64,000 nt of DNA from Clostridia bacterium (GTDB taxonomy: Bacteria > Bacillota > Clostridia > Oscillospirales > CAG-272), in NCBI GenBank assembly GCA_017462385.1, contig JAFTRE010000032.1, positions 104,488 through 168,487 on the forward strand. The letters are read 5' to 3'. Of this stretch, positions 1,607 through 55,346 are shown one piece after another; the first letter of the stretch is position 1; each line of letters starts with the position of its first letter. The notes beneath the pieces are model-generated. The model had not been told where the DNA came from and did not search any database. It saw nothing but the letters and a program-made list of their open reading frames with translations. A program made the translations under genes and the position numbers.

Positions 1607-1657
1607 GTCAAAGTCCGCGAATTCTCTTTCTAAGGTTTCATGTGAAACGCAAAGGCC

Positions 1658-2158
1658 TTAAATGACCTCAATACTCTCGATAACGACAGCGTCTCTCGGT
1701 ACGTCCTGCATATACCAGCCGCGATTGCCCGTTTTGACCGAAGCGATCTTGTCGATCACGTCCTCGCCCTCGATAACCTTTCCGAATGCCGCGTACTGCG
1801 CGTCAAGGTGCGGAGAGGGCTGATGCATGATAAAGAACTGCGAGGATGCCGAGTCGGGATCCGAGGTGCGCGCCATGGAAAGCACACCGCGCTCGTGCTT
1901 TATGTCGTTCTTCAAAAAGCCGTTTGCGGCGAACTCGCCCTTGATGGCGTCCGCTTCCTTGTCCTCAAACATTTCGGTGTACCCGCCGCCCTGTATCATA
2001 AAGCCGCGGATAACGCGGTGGAAAATGGTACCCGAGTAAAAGCCCTCGCCAACCAGCTTCAGAAAATTCTCGACAGTCTTTGGTGCCTTTTCGGGGTACA
2101 GCTCGGCGATCATCTCGCCAAATCCCTTAACTGTTATTTTTACTTTTGGATTGCTCAT
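1658..2158 (-). CDS. ppiB: peptidyl-prolyl cis-trans isomerase, cyclophilin type
   Basis: 166-aa ORF with cyclophilin signatures FHRVIRGFMIQGG and SMARTSDPDSASSQFFI. Confidence 0.9.
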   Translation of the reverse strand: MSNPKVKITVKGFGEMIAELYPEKAPKTVENFLKLVGEGFYSGTIFHRVIRGFMIQGGGYTEMFEDKEADAIKGEFAANGFLKNDIKHERGVLSMARTSDPDSASSQFFIMHQPSPHLDAQYAAFGKVIEGEDVIDKIASVKTGNRGWYMQDVPRDAVVIESIEVI

Positions 2159-2190
2159 TTTTTATCTCCGTTCTGATTGTTAATAAATTT

Positions 2191-2393
2191 TATTATTTGG
2201 TTGTAGTACCTTGTTTCATCTAAAGCTTTACAATGTCTTAGCCTCTCCCTATGGGAGAGGTGTCGCGGCAAGCCGCGACGGAGAGGTGTTTATTAGCATC
2301 GATCTTACCCTCTCAGTCGCCTTTGGCGACAGCTCTCCCCCAGGGAGAGCCTTTTTTTGCAATGTCGGCTTTTAGTTGAAACAGGGCTGTAGG
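2191..2393. repeat. hairpin-mosaic repeat family A, full unit (MITE-like), copy 1
   Basis: Collinear and roughly 90 percent identical by eye to 44928-45130. The reverse complement of its right ~150 bp recurs at 58757-58909. It is built of hairpins CCTCTCCC-tat-GGGAGAGG, GTCGCGG-caag-CCGCGAC, GTCGCC-ttt-GGCGAC and GCTCTCCC-cca-GGGAGAGC. Confidence 0.85.
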
Positions 2394-2427
2394 ATTATTT
2401 GCGTGAAAACGTGAAAAATAATTAAAT

Positions 2428-2799
2428 TCACACGTTTTCGTTATACGCCGCCGTCAGCAGTTCATTGATTCTATCCTGCCGACCTCCAAGATACAGCCAC
2501 CCCATCAGCGCCTCCATACCCGTTGCCGAGCGGTATTCCGACGCTGTCGCGTGGCGCGGCAGATTTGTGTGACCGATGTTTCGCCCGCGGCGGAATATCG
2601 CCGCCTCGTCCTCGCTCAGCGCGGGCAATATTTTCTTCATCGCCGCCGCCTGGCGGGGCGCGGTGACGTAGGACAGCGCCTCGGCGTTAAGCTCGCGCGA
2701 GCCCGAAAGCCCACTGCGGACGAGCCGCTCGCGAACCCACACCTCTATGACCGCGTCGCCCAGATATGCGAGCGCCTGCGCGGAATACACCGTCGCCAT
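2428..2799 (-). CDS. mrnC: mini-ribonuclease 3 (Mini-III)
   Basis: MATVYSAQALAYLGDAVIEVWVRERL... carries the RNase III-like AYLGDAV motif. I chose the ATG at 2799, which overlaps the upstream stop codon (ATGA). The track ORF extends to 2904 inside the upstream gene. Confidence 0.85.
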   Translation of the reverse strand: MATVYSAQALAYLGDAVIEVWVRERLVRSGLSGSRELNAEALSYVTAPRQAAAMKKILPALSEDEAAIFRRGRNIGHTNLPRHATASEYRSATGMEALMGWLYLGGRQDRINELLTAAYNENV

Positions 2800-3899
2800 C
2801 AGAGCACGCCGCCCTTTGCAAGTGCGCGGCGTATCTCGCTTTCGATTCCGTCTGCCATGAGCGTAAAGCCCAGATCGTTGGGGTGGACGGCGTCCATGGT
2901 GCACTCGTTTTCATATTTGCCGAGGAAAAAGCTTTCGCCGTCGATATAATAAACATTTTTATCGCCCAACGACAGCGCGTGACGGTAGGTATCGATAATA
3001 ACATCGCGGCGCTCGGCAAATTCGGACTGGTTGGTCGCGATATTAGGACGGGATATCATGATATAAGGTGTGTCGGGACGCTTGGCGCGGAAAATATCGT
3101 AAACATTTTGGTGCGTGTCACGCAAAAATGCCGCGTTGGGAGCGTTATGGTCGTAATCGCACACAAACAGGCACATATCCATGCCCGCCATATACTCGAC
3201 CAGCACAGGCTCGCCCTTTGCCTTGCCCGAAAAGCCAAGATTGATATAATCCATATTCAGTCTGCGGGAAAGTATGCTCTGATATATCAGCCCCGGGCGC
3301 GACGCGGCGGTACCGTGAACTATCGAGCTACCGTAGTACACAATAGGTGAGGAATTGCGGTACTTCTTGCCGCTCTCCAGCTTTGCGTCCTCCTGCAGAC
3401 CTATATAAAGATTTTTCACAACGCCGTGTATGGGGAAGTTGATGGTAAAGCTTCTCATGCGGCGAGGTCCTGCAATCTTGAGTATCTGCTCATAGTCGTT
3501 TTCAAACTTATAAGGCGGCAAAAACGGCTTTATAAAGCGCGAATCCGTGTCGGTATCCTCGTAAAGATCAAAGCCGGCGCCGTTGCACAGCGTTGTGTGC
3601 GAGCTGCGGGCATAGGGACCCATCTCGACCTTGATGGCTATATAGCTCGAATCGGTTGAAAAACGGACGCGTCCGCCCGCCGACTCGCGGCACAGCTTTG
3701 CCACTCCCTCGCTGGTCGCCTCGGCGACATCTGCGGGCAAACGGCGGAAATAGGGCTGGTTGTAAACATCATAAAGGCCGTAAATATCAAACGGCGGCTT
3801 GCGAATATCGTAAAACTTTACGTCGGGCTCCTCGATAGTGGTCGCCACGATCATATTTTTATCTACTTCAACATACGCTTCTTTTTTGATATCTTCCAT
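2799..3899 (-). CDS. SGNH/GDSL-type esterase with an N-terminal GxDLY domain (paralog 1)
   Basis: GAGFDLYED (GxDLY motif), the GSSIVHG Ser block and a DAVHPNDLGF catalytic His block. The start was moved to the ATG at 3899 (AAAGGAGAG SD; aligns with the paralog N-terminus ..EVDKNM.V.TT). Confidence 0.8.
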   Translation of the reverse strand: MEDIKKEAYVEVDKNMIVATTIEEPDVKFYDIRKPPFDIYGLYDVYNQPYFRRLPADVAEATSEGVAKLCRESAGGRVRFSTDSSYIAIKVEMGPYARSSHTTLCNGAGFDLYEDTDTDSRFIKPFLPPYKFENDYEQILKIAGPRRMRSFTINFPIHGVVKNLYIGLQEDAKLESGKKYRNSSPIVYYGSSIVHGTAASRPGLIYQSILSRRLNMDYINLGFSGKAKGEPVLVEYMAGMDMCLFVCDYDHNAPNAAFLRDTHQNVYDIFRAKRPDTPYIMISRPNIATNQSEFAERRDVIIDTYRHALSLGDKNVYYIDGESFFLGKYENECTMDAVHPNDLGFTLMADGIESEIRRALAKGGVL

Positions 3900-8895: not shown

Positions 8896-8977
8896 TTTAG
8901 ATGCACCTCCTTGTGGTTTGGTTATCGGAAGCGTAATATTCTGCTGATTTACACGTCCTGACACAATGACAGCCTAT

Positions 8978-9007
8978 ATTATACACCGTTTTATACCGCT
9001 TTGTCAA
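8978..9007 (-). promoter_or_regulatory. rpmH promoter candidate
   Basis: On the minus strand: TTGACA (9002-9007), an 18-nt spacer, then TATAAT (8978-8983). Confidence 0.55.
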
Positions 9008-9046
9008 TAGATTTTTGAAATTTTTCCAGCGGTTTTATTATTATTG

Positions 9047-9076
9047 TTGACAAATTTACGCGCAAAATGATATAAT
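9047..9076 (+). promoter_or_regulatory. strong sigma-70-type promoter, divergent from the rpmH promoter
   Basis: Consensus TTGACA (9047-9052), an 18-nt spacer, then consensus TATAAT (9071-9076). Confidence 0.6.
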
Positions 9077-9082
9077 AATGCC

Positions 9083-9445
9083 GTGAACGGTCACAATAAG
9101 GCCGGACACCGTAAGGGTGCGCTCAAAACGGTGCGGCGGTTGCTTTCCGATTCCGGGAAGTCATATCTGATACCATTTATGCCATAACTCGGACACCCGC
9201 TTGCGGGTGCGACAGGTGGCAAGTAGATTTTGTTACCGTGTGGCAATATGCCACCGTTGCCTTCCCGAGATGGGAGGTGATGCCGATGTATATAACATTG
9301 GAGCAGTTGTTCCTGATAGCAGGATTCATACTCGCGCTTTTGGTTTACATGGACAACAAAAAAAGATAACCGCCCTGACGACCAATCTTAGCGATTATCT
9401 TTAATCATTGAGCTTGGAAGCAACCGTCGCCGGTGCCCCTTACGT
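9083..9445 (+). ncRNA. candidate structured RNA (or mRNA leader) closed by a long-range 5'-3' helix and enclosing a small ORF
   Basis: 9110-9117 pairs perfectly with 9437-9444 (8 bp, extendable by about 4). 9133-9148 pairs with 9416-9430 (15 bp, one bulge, one GU). The SD GGGAGG (9272-9277) can pair with CUUCCC (9261-9266), and that anti-SD can alternatively pair with CGGGAAG (9154-9160). The motif CGGACACC..GGGTGCG recurs twice (9103-9121, 9190-9210). I could not recognise any conserved core of RNase P, tmRNA, SRP or 6S RNA. Confidence 0.45.
9286..9369 (+). CDS. 27-aa hydrophobic peptide MYITLEQLFLIAGFILALLVYMDNKKR (candidate type I toxin or holin-like small membrane peptide)
   Basis: ATG lies 8 nt after the GGGAGG SD. 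The peptide has a single TM-length hydrophobic stretch and a basic C-terminus (NKKR). Its architecture resembles the Hol-Tox (PF16935) and type I toxin families from memory. It is too short for the ORF track. Confidence 0.45.
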   Translation: MYITLEQLFLIAGFILALLVYMDNKKR

Positions 9446-9514
9446 GATTATAATAGCACATTTTTGCCTTATTGTCAAGCGGTATTTTGATTTTCATTCC
9501 AAAGGAGGTCGCGT

Positions 9515-10543
9515 ATGCTGAAAATACTGACCGAAGCCGAATTCAACCGTCAGCTCTCGTCCCCCGAGGCGGGATATCTGCTTTTCGGCGACGAGGACTA
9601 CACCAAGCAGCACGCACTGCGCCGTCTGCGCGAGGCTGTTTGCCCCGACCCCGTCGCCGCGACCTTTAACGACATTCGCTTTACCGCGCTCGATTTCACG
9701 CCCTCCAAGCTGCTCGACGCGCTCGAGCCACCTCCGATGCTTGGCGAGCGCAAAATAATCTCGGTCACAGGGCTGGATTTTTCCCTCTTGCGCGCCGACG
9801 AGACAAACGCGCTCTGCGACGCGCTCGGAGCACTCGCCGATTACGACTACAACACGCTGGTCATCTCGCTCTCCGAGGGTGCCATCGACGAGGGAAGACT
9901 GCCCAAAAAGCCCTCTGCCCTGCTCACCAGACTTTGTGAGCATCTGACGCCCGTCCGCTTTGCCCGTATAACGCCCGCCCGCCTTGCCGGCTGGGTAGGC
10001 AAGCACTTCGAGCACAACGGCGTCAATGCCGCTCCCGCGCTGTGCGCCCGCGTTGTGGACTATTGCGGCACCTCCATGTTTACGCTTGCCGCTGAGGTGG
10101 ACAAGATCAGCTTTTACGTCCGTGCACACGGACGTGCCGAGCTTTGTGAGGACGACATAACCGCCGTTGCGGTGGCCGACACCTCTTACGACGCTTTTGC
10201 CTTTGCCAACGCGCTGATCGCGGGCGACCGCCCCCGCGCGCTGGGCATACTGGCTGTCATGAAGCAGCAGCGCATCGAGCCGACCGTTATCATGGGCGAC
10301 GTTTCAAAATCGTTTTGCGAAATGCTCTCGGTGCGTCGTCTTATGGACGAAGGCGCCGCCATTCCCCTGATTGCCGCGACGACCAAGATACACGAATACC
10401 GCGTAGGTCTTTACGCCCGCGGCGTTGCATCGACAGACGGCGATGCGCTGTGCCGAATTATCCAAATGTGCGCCGAGGCGGACGCCGCCGTCAAGCTGTC
10501 ACGCGGATATGAAGCGATAGAACGCCTTATCTGCGGGATTTGA
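9515..10543 (+). CDS. holA: DNA polymerase III subunit delta
   Basis: 342 aa with the N-terminal GYLLFGDEDYTKQHALRRL pattern typical of HolA, and the right length. AAAGGAGG SD. Confidence 0.75.
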   Translation: MLKILTEAEFNRQLSSPEAGYLLFGDEDYTKQHALRRLREAVCPDPVAATFNDIRFTALDFTPSKLLDALEPPPMLGERKIISVTGLDFSLLRADETNALCDALGALADYDYNTLVISLSEGAIDEGRLPKKPSALLTRLCEHLTPVRFARITPARLAGWVGKHFEHNGVNAAPALCARVVDYCGTSMFTLAAEVDKISFYVRAHGRAELCEDDITAVAVADTSYDAFAFANALIAGDRPRALGILAVMKQQRIEPTVIMGDVSKSFCEMLSVRRLMDEGAAIPLIAATTKIHEYRVGLYARGVASTDGDALCRIIQMCAEADAAVKLSRGYEAIERLICGI

Positions 10544-10588: not shown

Positions 10589-11587
10589 ATGAATAAAGAA
10601 TTAGAATTTTTACTTTATAACACTCCTCAGGACGACGTTGAAATAAATGTCATGATCGACAAAGAAACCGTCTGGCTCACGCAAGCGCAAATGTCGGAGC
10701 TTTTTCAACGCGATCGCACTGTTATAACCAAGCACATCAAAAACATTTTCGATGAGGGAGAACTGGAAGAACAAAGCAATGTGCAAAATTTGCACATTCC
10801 AAATTCTGACAAAAAAGTTGCTTTTTACAGCCTTGATGTTATCATTTCGGTAGGCTATCGGGTAAAATCTCTGCGCGGCACACAATTCCGCATTTGGGCG
10901 ACCGCGGTGCTCAAGGAATATATCCGCAAGGGCTTTGTTCTCGACGACGAGCGCTTAAAGCAAGGTCAGACAGCCTTCGATAAGGATTATTTTCAGGAAT
11001 TGCTTGAGCGCGTTCGCTCTATTCGCGCAAGCGAGCGCCGCGTATGGCAAAAAATCACCGACATTTTCGCCGAGTGCAGTACCGACTACGACAAGCGCTC
11101 TCCCGTCACAAAGGATTTTTACGCCACCGTGCAAAACAAATTCCACTACGCCATAACAGGTCAAACCGCCGCCGAGATCATATACAGTAAAGCCGACAGC
11201 GAAAAGCATAACATGGGGCTGACAACGTGGAAAAACGCTCCCGACGGCCGTGTTTTAAAATCCGATGTGACCGTCGCCAAAAACTACTTGAGTGAAGTTG
11301 AAATACGCCGTCTTGAGCGAACTGTTTCGGGCTTCTTTGACTATATAGAGGATCTGGTCGAGCGCGGCCACACCTTTACCATGGAGGATTTTTCAAAAAG
11401 CATTAACCGTTTCCTTGCGTTTCGTGAATATAAGATACTTGGGAACAAGGGCAGTATATCCCGTGAGGAGGCAGATCAAAAAGCATTTGCCGAATACGAT
11501 AAGTTTAATAAAACACAAAAAATCGTGTCCGACTTCGACAAAGAGATACGCCGTCTCAAAGAAAAGCATGATACACGCGAGGACTGA
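10589..11587 (+). CDS. RhuM-family (virulence-associated) protein
   Basis: 332 aa. EINVMIDKETVWLTQAQMSELFQRDRTVITKHIKNIF...VISVGYRVKSLRGTQFRIWAT matches the RhuM family as I recall it. The first ~300 nt are visibly AT-richer than the flanking genes. Confidence 0.75.
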   Translation: MNKELEFLLYNTPQDDVEINVMIDKETVWLTQAQMSELFQRDRTVITKHIKNIFDEGELEEQSNVQNLHIPNSDKKVAFYSLDVIISVGYRVKSLRGTQFRIWATAVLKEYIRKGFVLDDERLKQGQTAFDKDYFQELLERVRSIRASERRVWQKITDIFAECSTDYDKRSPVTKDFYATVQNKFHYAITGQTAAEIIYSKADSEKHNMGLTTWKNAPDGRVLKSDVTVAKNYLSEVEIRRLERTVSGFFDYIEDLVERGHTFTMEDFSKSINRFLAFREYKILGNKGSISREEADQKAFAEYDKFNKTQKIVSDFDKEIRRLKEKHDTRED

Positions 11588-40238: not shown

Positions 40239-40714
40239 ATGAAATCCGAGCAATTTGCTTCGCAAATATCTGCTCGGATGAAATCTTCGGCGTGCCGCCT
40301 CAGATGAAATTAAATCCGTCCTATCTCTCCCCGCGAAGCGGGATTTCATCGCGAAGCGATTTCATCATACGCAAGTGGGATTTATCCCGTCCGTATGGAC
40401 GGATTTAGTTGAAAAAAGCAGATTGCTTTCGCAATCTGCTTTTTTCTGGCGGAGACGGAGAGATTTGAACCCTTTCGTTTAATGAAATCGTGCTACGCAC
40501 GATGAAATCCGAGCAATTTGCTTCGCAAATATCTGCTCGGATGAAATCTTCGGCCTACGGCCTCAGATGAAATTAAATCCGTCCTATCTCTCCCCGCGAA
40601 GCGGGTTTTCATCGCGAAGCGATTTCATCCTACGCAAGTGGGATTTATCCCGTCCGTATGGACGGATTTAGTTGAAAAAAGCAGATTGCTTTCGCAATCT
40701 GCTTTTTTCTTGGC
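40239..40714. repeat. 263-bp-period tandem duplication (2 copies of ~210 bp), each copy starting right after a tRNA CCA end
   Basis: 40239-40450 and 40502-40714 differ only at a small hairpin (GGCG-tgc-CGCC vs GGCC-tac-GGCC), two A substitutions and one T indel. Each contains repeated ATGAAATC/GATTTCAT octamers around hairpins and a bidirectional terminator GAAAAAAGCAGATTGC-tttc-GCAATCTGCTTTTTTC. Confidence 0.9.
40447..40472 (-). pseudogene. 3' fragment of a tRNA gene (T-loop plus acceptor 3' strand plus CCA)
   Basis: The minus strand reads GGTTCAAATCTCTCCGTCTCCGCCA. The T-stem 5' strand and everything upstream are missing. The sequence differs from the tRNA-Trp 3' end. Confidence 0.6.
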
Positions 40715-40786
40715 AGGGGCAGAAGGACTTGAACCCACGACACCCAGTTTTGGAGACTGGTGTTCTACCGACTGAACTATACCCCT
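40711..40786 (-). tRNA. trnW: tRNA-Trp (anticodon CCA)
   Basis: 76 nt. The acceptor stem AGGGGTA/TGCCCCT pairs (one GU), with discriminator G and an encoded CCA. The anticodon arm is CCAGT-CTCCAAA-ACTGG and the T-loop is GGTTCAAGTCC. Upstream promoter on the minus strand: TTGACC, 17 nt, TATAAT. Confidence 0.9.
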
Positions 40787-55039: not shown

Positions 55040-55346
55040 ACAAAAAATCTCCGCATCGAACGATATTGTTCGACACAGAGACGGAAATACATCCGCGGTA
55101 CCACTCTGCTTTATTGCCGCCTTACGACAGCAACCTTTGCGGGCATTCGGTGTTCAAACGTCCACCGATATGACGGTCGGCATCCGGCGCAGCCTACTTC
55201 GCGTTCGGTGCGCAGCTCCCGAAGAGTAATTCATCGACGCGCGCCGCCTGCTCGCACCACCCGCAGACTCTCTGAAGGACTTTTCCCGCCGACTACTGGA
55301 CTTCGATCATAGCTTTTATGGTCAAAACCACTTTAGTATTATAAGT
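55040..55346 (-). promoter_or_regulatory. T-box riboswitch leader
   Basis: On the minus strand: the T-box core AGAGTGGTACCGCGG (55093-55107) and a terminator CTCTGTGTCGAAC-aatatc-GTTCGATGCGGAG plus ATTTTTTG. An 86-nt candidate Stem I (55220-55305) has an AGUA element, an AGAGAG bulge and a 3'-side GAAUUACU next to the basal CGAAG/CUUCG helix. Confidence 0.75.

Follow-up and report, generated by a model that had tools for sequence, protein, structure and literature searches.

A predicted type I toxin–antitoxin module of the TxpA/BsrG kind between holA and its promoter in a Clostridia genome

The window analysed here is a 64,000-nucleotide stretch of contig JAFTRE010000032.1 from a Clostridia bacterium (GCA_017462385.1). 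The spacer between its rpmH and holA genes appears to carry a type I toxin–antitoxin (TA) module of the TxpA/BsrG kind (Pfam Hol_Tox), with predicted transcripts and predicted toxicity, a reading to which we give a probability of about 0.8. Its parts are a putative toxin mRNA closed on itself by a long-range helix (P1), a 27-codon open reading frame (ORF) inside this helix, and a convergent promoter and terminator for a predicted antisense RNA. Membership of a peptide family, coding constraint on the ORF, covariation of P1, strand-specific stabilities of two helices and conservation of the promoters were observed in silico. The known picture of type I TA biology is unchanged by these results. 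The unusual point is the position of the module, between the essential replication gene holA and its promoter, with a strong convergent promoter facing the promoter of the gene.

The putative toxin mRNA and its antisense RNA

The 5' strand of P1 extends over 9093-9148 of the + strand (sub-helices 9093-9102, 9110-9122 and 9133-9148) and the 3' strand over 9416-9475 (sub-helices 9416-9430, 9433-9444 and 9466-9475), as deduced from complementarity and from the minimum free energy (MFE) fold. The segment CGTAAGGG at 9110-9117 is the exact complement of CCCTTACG at 9437-9444, and this helix is extended by pairs between 9119-9122 and 9433-9436 (GC, CG, GU, CG). Positions 9133-9148 pair with 9416-9430 (13 nt at 92%, plus an extension). 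These long-range pairings had been proposed in an initial annotation made from the letters of the window, and they were recovered both in the sequence and in the MFE structure. A further perfect pairing of 10 bp, between 9093-9102 (ACAATAAGGC) and 9466-9475 (GCCTTATTGT), was absent from that annotation and lengthens the closure. The + strand RNA from 9083 to 9450 folds at -143.8 kcal/mol compared with -109.4 ± 5.8 kcal/mol for dinucleotide shuffles (z = -5.96; none of 100 was as good), and the MFE structure includes the 5'-3' closure as well as the hairpin around the ribosome binding site described below. The fold of the – strand is weaker (z = -3.8).

The putative toxin ORF (MYITLEQLFLIAGFILALLVYMDNKKR, 9286-9369, + strand) has a Shine–Dalgarno (SD) sequence, GGGAGG at 9272-9277, located 8 nt upstream of the ATG, as first annotated. 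The deduced peptide of 27 amino acids (aa) is Hol-Tox/TxpA-like, with one predicted transmembrane (TM) helix, the hydrophobic core LFLIAGFILALLVYM and the basic tail DNKKR. A hairpin at 9257-9281 (+ strand) sequesters the SD by pairing it with the anti-SD CCUUCCC (9260-9266), and the predicted probability that the SD of the window is unpaired is 0.001. The shorter stretch CUUCCC (9261-9266) can pair either with the SD or with CGGGAAG at 9154-9160; all partners of the switchable SD proposed earlier were found in place.

When the 5' untranslated region (UTR) is folded in isolation, a hairpin termed A:B is formed at 9142-9161 (+ strand) from GCUUUCCG and CGGGAAGU. Motif A is common to this hairpin and to the inner end of P1, and motif B is the 'anti-anti-SD', the alternative partner of the anti-SD. 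Of the four motifs in the 5' UTR, A (located where the 5' arm ends on its inner side) and C (the anti-SD) are pyrimidine motifs, and B and D (the SD) are purine motifs; a third purine motif is provided by the inner end of the 3' arm. Homologs carry the same four-part A/B/C/D arrangement. The isolated 5' UTR folds either as A:B plus C:D or as A:D plus B:C, and the SD is paired in both. An additional hairpin motif, CGGACACC-loop-GGGTGCG, had been reported as occurring twice; its local alignment score was reached by 50 of 500 shuffles and is not above chance.

On the – strand, a convergent promoter is located at 9450-9478, with the -35 box TTGACA (9478-9473), a spacer of 17 nt, the -10 box TATTAT (9455-9450) and a TG upstream (11 of 12 matches). 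The initial annotation had put forward a minus-strand candidate here, with TTGACA and TATAAT 20 nt apart; it is better read as TTGACA-17-TATTAT. In the 57 homologous modules described below, the -10 box, which lay outside the search pattern, is a perfect TATAAT in 46 and matches at 5 of 6 positions in 11, at 16-18 nt from TTGACA. As judged by this conservation, the antisense promoter is real. The hairpin T1 (9362-9402, – strand), followed by a U7 tract (9361-9356), would be the intrinsic terminator of the antisense RNA, and the strand opposite its U-tract carries the Lys codons of the toxin tail.

From this promoter and terminator, an antitoxin RNA of ~88 nt (9356-9443, – strand) is predicted. 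It would be fully complementary to the toxin mRNA over a stretch that runs from the four final sense codons plus stop codon (9355-9369) to the 3' strand of P1, and would fold into a 5' hairpin and the T1 terminator (-29.4 kcal/mol, z = -2.9). The overall type I toxin-like design noticed in the initial annotation holds for the locus as predicted here: the mRNA is closed from 5' to 3', its SD is occluded and can switch partners, and the peptide combines a single TM segment with a basic tail.

Homologous modules and their conservation

Extended in frame to 43 aa, the ORF matched one protein, P0121, which was the route to a wider family. The short metagenomic contigs of P0121 (L013-L015) show tandem modules, each beginning with a sense promoter and a 5' arm, followed by an anti-SD/SD pair and a 27-codon ORF (MYVTLEQLFLIAGFILALLSYIDHKKK) and then by a palindromic hairpin, a 3' arm and, last, a convergent promoter; the tandem copies in L013 each have their own promoter. 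We scanned one genome per species with a pattern of the 3' arm plus the antisense -35 box and obtained at least 118 loci, at least 116 of which contain the module at nhmmer E < 1e-20; the other two among the matches listed are chance matches. Two or more strong matches to the hidden Markov model (HMM) were present at 13 loci among the matches listed, and the hosts of these listed matches are nearly all gut or rumen metagenome-assembled genomes (MAGs) labelled Clostridia, Eubacteriales, Oscillospiraceae or Ruminococcus. An earlier pattern, of the 3' arm alone, gave 74 loci on viral contigs, of which 72 are chance matches.

An HMM built without the window matches it at 9257-9497 (E = 2.5e-52) and at 9110-9165 (E = 1e-4) and skips 9166-9256. 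The window and 57 non-redundant modules (58 in all) were aligned. A sense promoter with at least 10 of 12 consensus matches is present in 52 of the 57 modules, while shuffled controls mostly reach 7-9.

RNAalifold, run on the alignment without the window, recovers P1, the SD hairpin and the post-ORF hairpin T1. With the structure specified by hand, 92.6% of cells are standard pairs, compared with 37-58% when the partners are slid. Seven of the ten distal P1 pairs changed on both sides (e.g. GC:23 / AU:16 / CG:2), and the observed covariation score was reached in none of 500 column shuffles; compensatory change in the closing helix, which the initial annotation had suggested looking for, is therefore present. 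The SD hairpin is paired at 90.4% across the family, with compensatory change at 2 pairs. Distal P1 arms pair with their cognate partners at -15.1 kcal/mol versus -9.6 kcal/mol with non-cognate ones, and the cognate arm beats at least 90% of the non-cognate partners in 45 of 57 modules.

The two helices have opposite strand biases. P1 is more stable as + RNA in 55 of 58 modules (-41.2 vs -34.2 kcal/mol), and its conserved G·U pairs become C·A mismatches on the opposite strand. T1 is more stable as – RNA in 49 of 58 modules (-20.8 vs -18.7 kcal/mol); the values for T1 of the window are -16.3 kcal/mol as – RNA and -9.8 kcal/mol as + RNA. The first bias points to P1 as a helix within the sense mRNA, which would then have to extend through the 3' arm, and the second to T1 as the antisense terminator. 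Opposite biases of this kind offer a simple test, from sequence only, of the functional strand in palindromic elements.

Under a strict filter, 84 of the 126 pattern matches listed have a suitable ORF in the same place within the module. In the family, its stop codon lies ~50-65 nt before the 3' arm and its length is mostly 26-35 codons (range 26-44); the ORFs are preceded by an SD and encode hydrophobic peptides with a Lys/Arg tail. Over 103 pairs of equal-length ORFs, the proportions of synonymous (pS) and nonsynonymous (pN) differences were 0.60 and 0.19 (ratio pN/pS 0.31), and 791, 329 and 1271 differences fell on the three codon positions, with the third the most variable. For the window ORF and that of L013, pS was 0.59 and pN 0.11. 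By these comparisons the toxin ORF is under purifying selection.

Close homologs of the peptide score 24.0, 25.8 and 29.6 bits against PF16935 (Hol_Tox), above its gathering score of 23.3. They are 52-81% identical to the window peptide or come from the same RNA-defined module family, and the window peptide is 81% identical to a member above the gathering score. PF16935 is matched by 18 of 48 family peptides at E ≤ 0.01. The family profile also matches PDB 7NS1 weakly (E = 8e-4), the nuclear magnetic resonance structure, a single helix, of the Staphylococcus aureus type I toxin SprG1(31), a TxpA homolog (PMC8309996). On this evidence the family peptides belong to Pfam Hol_Tox, the TxpA family, and the window peptide probably with them. 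The resemblance to Hol-Tox-type peptides seen in the initial annotation is thus borne out by the close homologs; in the direct comparison with PF16935 that it had recommended, these homologs passed the gathering score and the window peptide gave no match. The window peptide is too short and divergent to match the HMM alone.

Variants of the N-terminus were found within the family. In one sub-family (L099, L176, L179, the second module of L193, and L194), the SD-proximal ATG opens a non-hydrophobic frame (MNLFHSHRAFGDGYIRS…KKK), and the Hol-Tox-like MVTYEALFAF… begins 34 nt downstream in another frame, without an SD. The related modules L112, L126, L147 and L196 have instead a 10-aa extension in frame (MNKTKSTETDMVSYTE…). 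These in-frame and out-of-frame variants recall the long and short SprG1 peptides.

No Rfam family was matched in this region of the window at the gathering score, and the Rfam covariance models run over 8900-9600 on both strands at E ≤ 10 gave two chance-level matches only, Pseudomonas sRNA P1 (E 3.2) and SAM-SAH (E 8.1), and no antitoxin RNA family. In this respect the initial annotation, which could place the RNA in no known family, was right. Its wording 'undescribed' went too far for the locus as a whole: the TxpA/Hol-Tox peptide family and the RNA logic are known from bsrG/SR4 (PMC3834814), members of the family were annotated earlier as 'holin-like toxins', and TxpA-like sequences were found in Clostridiales (Fozo et al., 2010, PMC2887945). 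What the modules would add is a large unrecorded clade, with at least 116 loci across representative genomes of uncultured Clostridia from gut and rumen, and with an RNA architecture that is strongly conserved and covarying and is absent from Rfam.

The window copy has an extra 5' UTR segment of ~90 nt at 9166-9256 (+ strand), with three stem-loops, which is missing from the 57 aligned modules. A metagenome scan for this segment gave just 21-22-nt chance matches, on contigs that are unrelated and mostly marine, and duplication of the leader as its source was not significant. Searches of phage and plasmid collections with blastn (9040-9500) gave no match, and neither did tblastn with the 27-aa peptide, for which the low-complexity filter may be the cause.

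Three IMG/VR viral contigs (L048, at 1645-3240, and also L077 and L165) retain only the last ~5 toxin codons, T1, the 3' arm and the antisense promoter. This remnant lies immediately downstream of the stop codon of a gene for a large serine recombinase (470 aa), and an integrative element or prophage appears to have been inserted in the toxin ORF with the antitoxin gene retained. Contigs of a bin that bears the label Akkermansia muciniphila (isolate H07647-L1_cleanbin) carry three copies (L103, L131 and L148). The hosts are Clostridia in every other case, and contamination of the bin is likelier than a genuine Verrucomicrobia host.

Predicted mode of action and the position at holA

From these features we infer the transcripts, the toxicity of the peptide, the involvement of RNase III and the switch, as follows. 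The toxin mRNA (+ strand) would start near 9083, and its 5' end (9093-9148) would pair with the 3' UTR (9416-9475) in P1. Inside P1, the SD (9272-9277) would be held in a hairpin by the anti-SD (9260-9266), and the ORF (9286-9369) would encode the 27-aa membrane peptide with its basic tail. Transcription from the convergent promoter (9478-9450, – strand) would give an antisense RNA from ~9443 to ~9356, ending at a hairpin and U-tract that overlap the last toxin codons. This RNA would pair with the 3' UTR of the mRNA, including the 3' strand of P1, and the sense/antisense duplex would be a substrate of RNase III. Binding would also release the 5' strand of P1, and the freed pyrimidine motif A and its twin C could then pair with the purine motifs B and SD, which would lock the SD. 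Exposure of the SD would be expected only when the 3' arm takes A in P1 and lets B take C. In a thermodynamic model in which antisense binding was represented by forbidding the complementary region to pair, the mean probability of an unpaired SD decreased from 0.12 to 0.02, with a decrease in 46 of 58 modules.

Several points weigh against the TA reading or limit it. The search pattern fixed the 3' arm and the -35 box, so conservation of these two elements is built into the set of homologs, and the modules are phylogenetically related, so p-values (Wilcoxon) overstate their independence. The window peptide itself has no match in Pfam (E ≤ 10) or NCBIfam. In the 28 nt that follow the -35 box, a sense terminator just after P1, as in bsrG, was detected in only 13 of 57 homologs, and the window showed none. 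Since this terminator is mostly missing, the 3' ends of the mRNAs are uncertain, and the transcript length of ~360 nt given at first for the window was not upheld: its 3' end cannot be fixed from sequence, and no + strand terminator was detected before holA. A conserved sense terminator overlapping the antisense -35 box was dropped as a family feature for the same counts. Finally, the SD of the window is closed with or without antisense RNA in the model, at the same probability in both states, so the translational switch may add little in the window copy and the mRNA may be essentially silent. In this copy the antisense RNA would act mainly via duplex-dependent decay.

The SD of the window, predicted to be almost never exposed, would also suit a peptide that is not a toxin. 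The RNA architecture could be that of a type I TA system while the peptide is a small membrane regulator, comparable to the competence inhibitor ComI, which is Hol-Tox-like; the antisense RNA would then set the level of the peptide. The family peptides do resemble ComI in NCBIfam (E = 8.6e-5), weakly and far below the cutoff (22 bits vs 55), and the toxicity of TxpA-family members varies with the host (PMC2887945). However, the members that have been tested, TxpA, BsrG, SprG1 and EF3263, were toxic when overexpressed (PMC2887945, PMC6562991, PMC8309996), and a multi-layer, tight repression is typical of toxins. We regard a regulatory peptide as improbable and keep to the toxin of a type I module.

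The genes around the module are arranged as yidC–yidD–rnpA–rpmH on the – strand, a spacer of ~610 bp, and holA, rhuM and mnmE on the + strand. The holA protein of the window has an exact match annotated 'MAG: Clostridia bacterium' (an uncultured Clostridia MAG). The gene, encoding DNA polymerase III delta (Pfam PF21694), is located at 9515-10543 (+ strand), with its SD AAAGGAGG at ~9501-9508 (+ strand), and the module now lies between it and its promoter. This sigma-70 promoter, TTGACA-18-TATAAT, is at 9047-9076 (+ strand; -35 box 9047-9052, -10 box 9071-9076) and has 12 of 12 consensus matches. The initial annotation had recognised the site and taken it for the module's own; the site is as described, and its origin is different.

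Contigs with holA orthologs of 66-73% identity were taken for comparison of the rpmH–holA spacer. Three related species (L007, L008 and L210) have a spacer of just 205-225 bp with the same divergent promoter pair, in which TTGACAA-TTTGCGCC-AAAATG-TATAAT is the equivalent of 9047-9076 and the holA SD follows 15-40 nt beyond the promoter. The family HMM did not find the module in the holA loci of L007, L008, L210, L208 or L211. Because three relatives without the module have the same promoter directly before holA, the comparison identifies 9047-9076 as the ancestral, conserved holA promoter rather than one belonging to the module. Because the same promoter pair occurs there without the module, the window is read as carrying a lineage-specific insertion of ~400 bp between the holA promoter and the holA SD, bounded roughly by 9080-9095 and 9478-9495.

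The 9047 promoter would now drive the toxin mRNA. No promoter-like or terminator-like site was detected on the + strand between 9083 and 9515, and holA is therefore probably expressed by read-through from the 9047 promoter. The window copy would thus be a clean case of a TA module landing in the 5' UTR of an essential gene, usable for asking how such insertions are tolerated. A more far-reaching possibility, which we think unlikely, is that in this lineage the essential clamp-loader gene holA no longer adjoins its promoter and has as its only transcript a 3' extension of the toxin mRNA, the TA module having been domesticated as the leader of a replication gene. If so, transcription of holA would have to proceed through a bidirectional hairpin and against a convergent antisense promoter close to consensus. 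Expression of DNA polymerase III delta would be coupled to the state of the TA module, by transcriptional interference, by RNase III cleavage that the antisense RNA guides to a site upstream of holA, or by co-degradation.

The same position, the lack of a detected promoter or terminator in between and the strong structure would also be compatible with a cis-regulatory leader (riboswitch or attenuator) that evolved for holA, with the small ORF as a leader peptide. As an origin of the element this is largely refuted and very improbable: over 100 other loci have the module, there with its own promoter (at least 10 of 12 matches in 52 of 57), and it also forms tandem arrays; in the closest relatives holA is expressed from this promoter with no module in between; and Rfam gave no match.

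Inverted repeats at the ends (9093-9102/9466-9475, perfect over 10 bp), insertion relative to three related species, multiple copies within genomes and a GTCA at both junctions could suggest a non-autonomous mobile element like a miniature inverted-repeat transposable element, with P1 as DNA-level terminal repeats and an incidental ORF and RNA folds. This was rejected as very improbable, since the arm mismatches are overwhelmingly G·U in the + sense, a strand bias that a DNA repeat should lack and for which the opposite bias of T1 at the same loci is an internal control, and since the right 'repeat' overlaps the conserved -35 box, which makes the GTCA a part of the module and not a target duplication; the ORF is moreover under purifying selection, near-consensus promoters are kept on both strands, and the family has no associated transposase.

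Some other observations were made in the window. A gene of the RhuM family (PF13310, E = 7e-104) is located at 10589-11587, between holA and mnmE, and in the relatives L208, L211 and L009 mnmE begins ~25-100 nt after holA; therefore the window has lineage-specific insertions on both flanks of holA. No second copy of the module was found in the 64 kb. Two independent short-read assemblies (Logan contigs L005 and L006) end at the start of the toxin ORF (~9301-9303), as expected if the genome holds further copies sharing the conserved SD/leader region. A T-box leader (55074-55319, – strand, 101.7 bits) and a tRNA (40714-40786, – strand) are ordinary Rfam matches unrelated to the toxin locus.

Comparison with known type I systems

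The RNA layout of the module in the window matches that of bsrG/SR4 of the Bacillus subtilis prophage SPβ. In the bsrG mRNA, nt 1-35 pair with nt 232-262 as P1 (PMC3834814; PMC6562991). When SR4 binds the 3' part of bsrG, nt 1-33 are released and the SD helix grows from 4 to 8 bp, and RNase III then cleaves the duplex (PMC3834814; PMC6562991). This mechanism was demonstrated experimentally in B. subtilis (PMC3834814; PMC6562991). Like bsrG, with its structured toxin mRNA of ~300 nt, the mRNA predicted here has its 5' ~35 nt and 3' UTR in a long, bulge-interrupted P1 that branches into stem-loops, its SD in a paired region, and its stop codon in or beside an internal stem-loop. As in bsrG/SR4, the convergent antisense RNA would be complementary to the 3' part of the mRNA, including the 3' strand of P1. 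In the family models its binding is predicted to release the 5' strand and tighten the pairing of the SD, as was shown for SR4, with the SD of the window closed in both states.

The differences are in size, sequence and host. The predicted antisense RNA is ~88 nt in contrast to ~180 nt for SR4, the peptide has 27 aa compared with 38 for BsrG, and the window lacks the terminator that directly follows P1 in bsrG. The two systems have no detectable nucleotide or Rfam similarity. The hosts here are uncultured gut Clostridia. The alignment would give natural covariation support to the mechanism known from bsrG, where binding of the antisense RNA opens P1 and leaves the SD locked, and for which there has so far been one experimentally probed system.

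Like TxpA of txpA/RatA (B. subtilis skin element) and the EF3263-type 'holin-like toxins' (PF16935), the peptides have the N-terminal motif x-Y/F-x-T-x-E-x-L, one TM helix and a Lys-rich tail. Unlike TxpA, the window peptide alone has no HMM match, and its RNA is unrelated to RatA in Rfam. The weak match of the family profile to SprG1(31) (E = 8e-4) links the peptides to sprG1/SprF1 of S. aureus, in which the antisense RNA likewise overlaps the 3' end; like SprG1 with its 44- and 31-aa forms, one sub-family here occurs with a longer or a shorter N-terminus. The systems differ in host and in RNA sequence.

As in hok/Sok (fbi) and aapA1/IsoA1 (Helicobacter pylori), long-range 5'-3' pairing of the mRNA would govern the accessibility of the SD. 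There, the antisense RNA is directed at the 5' region, with translation switched on by 3' processing, whereas here the 3' strand of the closing helix would be targeted, and the peptide families are unrelated. The modules of Clostridioides difficile (CD2517.1/RCd8 etc.) are also type I TA systems from the class Clostridia, and are often present in several copies and associated with mobile DNA (PMC6563280). A review found no sequence similarity between the type I toxins of C. difficile and B. subtilis (PMC6563280); the clade here is of the TxpA/Hol-Tox family. In our literature search, no paper was found on type I TA modules in Oscillospiraceae or related gut Clostridia.

Taken with these systems, the locus is predicted to work like the TxpA/BsrG/SprG type I TA systems of Gram-positive bacteria, and by its peptide family it groups with them as part of a large new clade.

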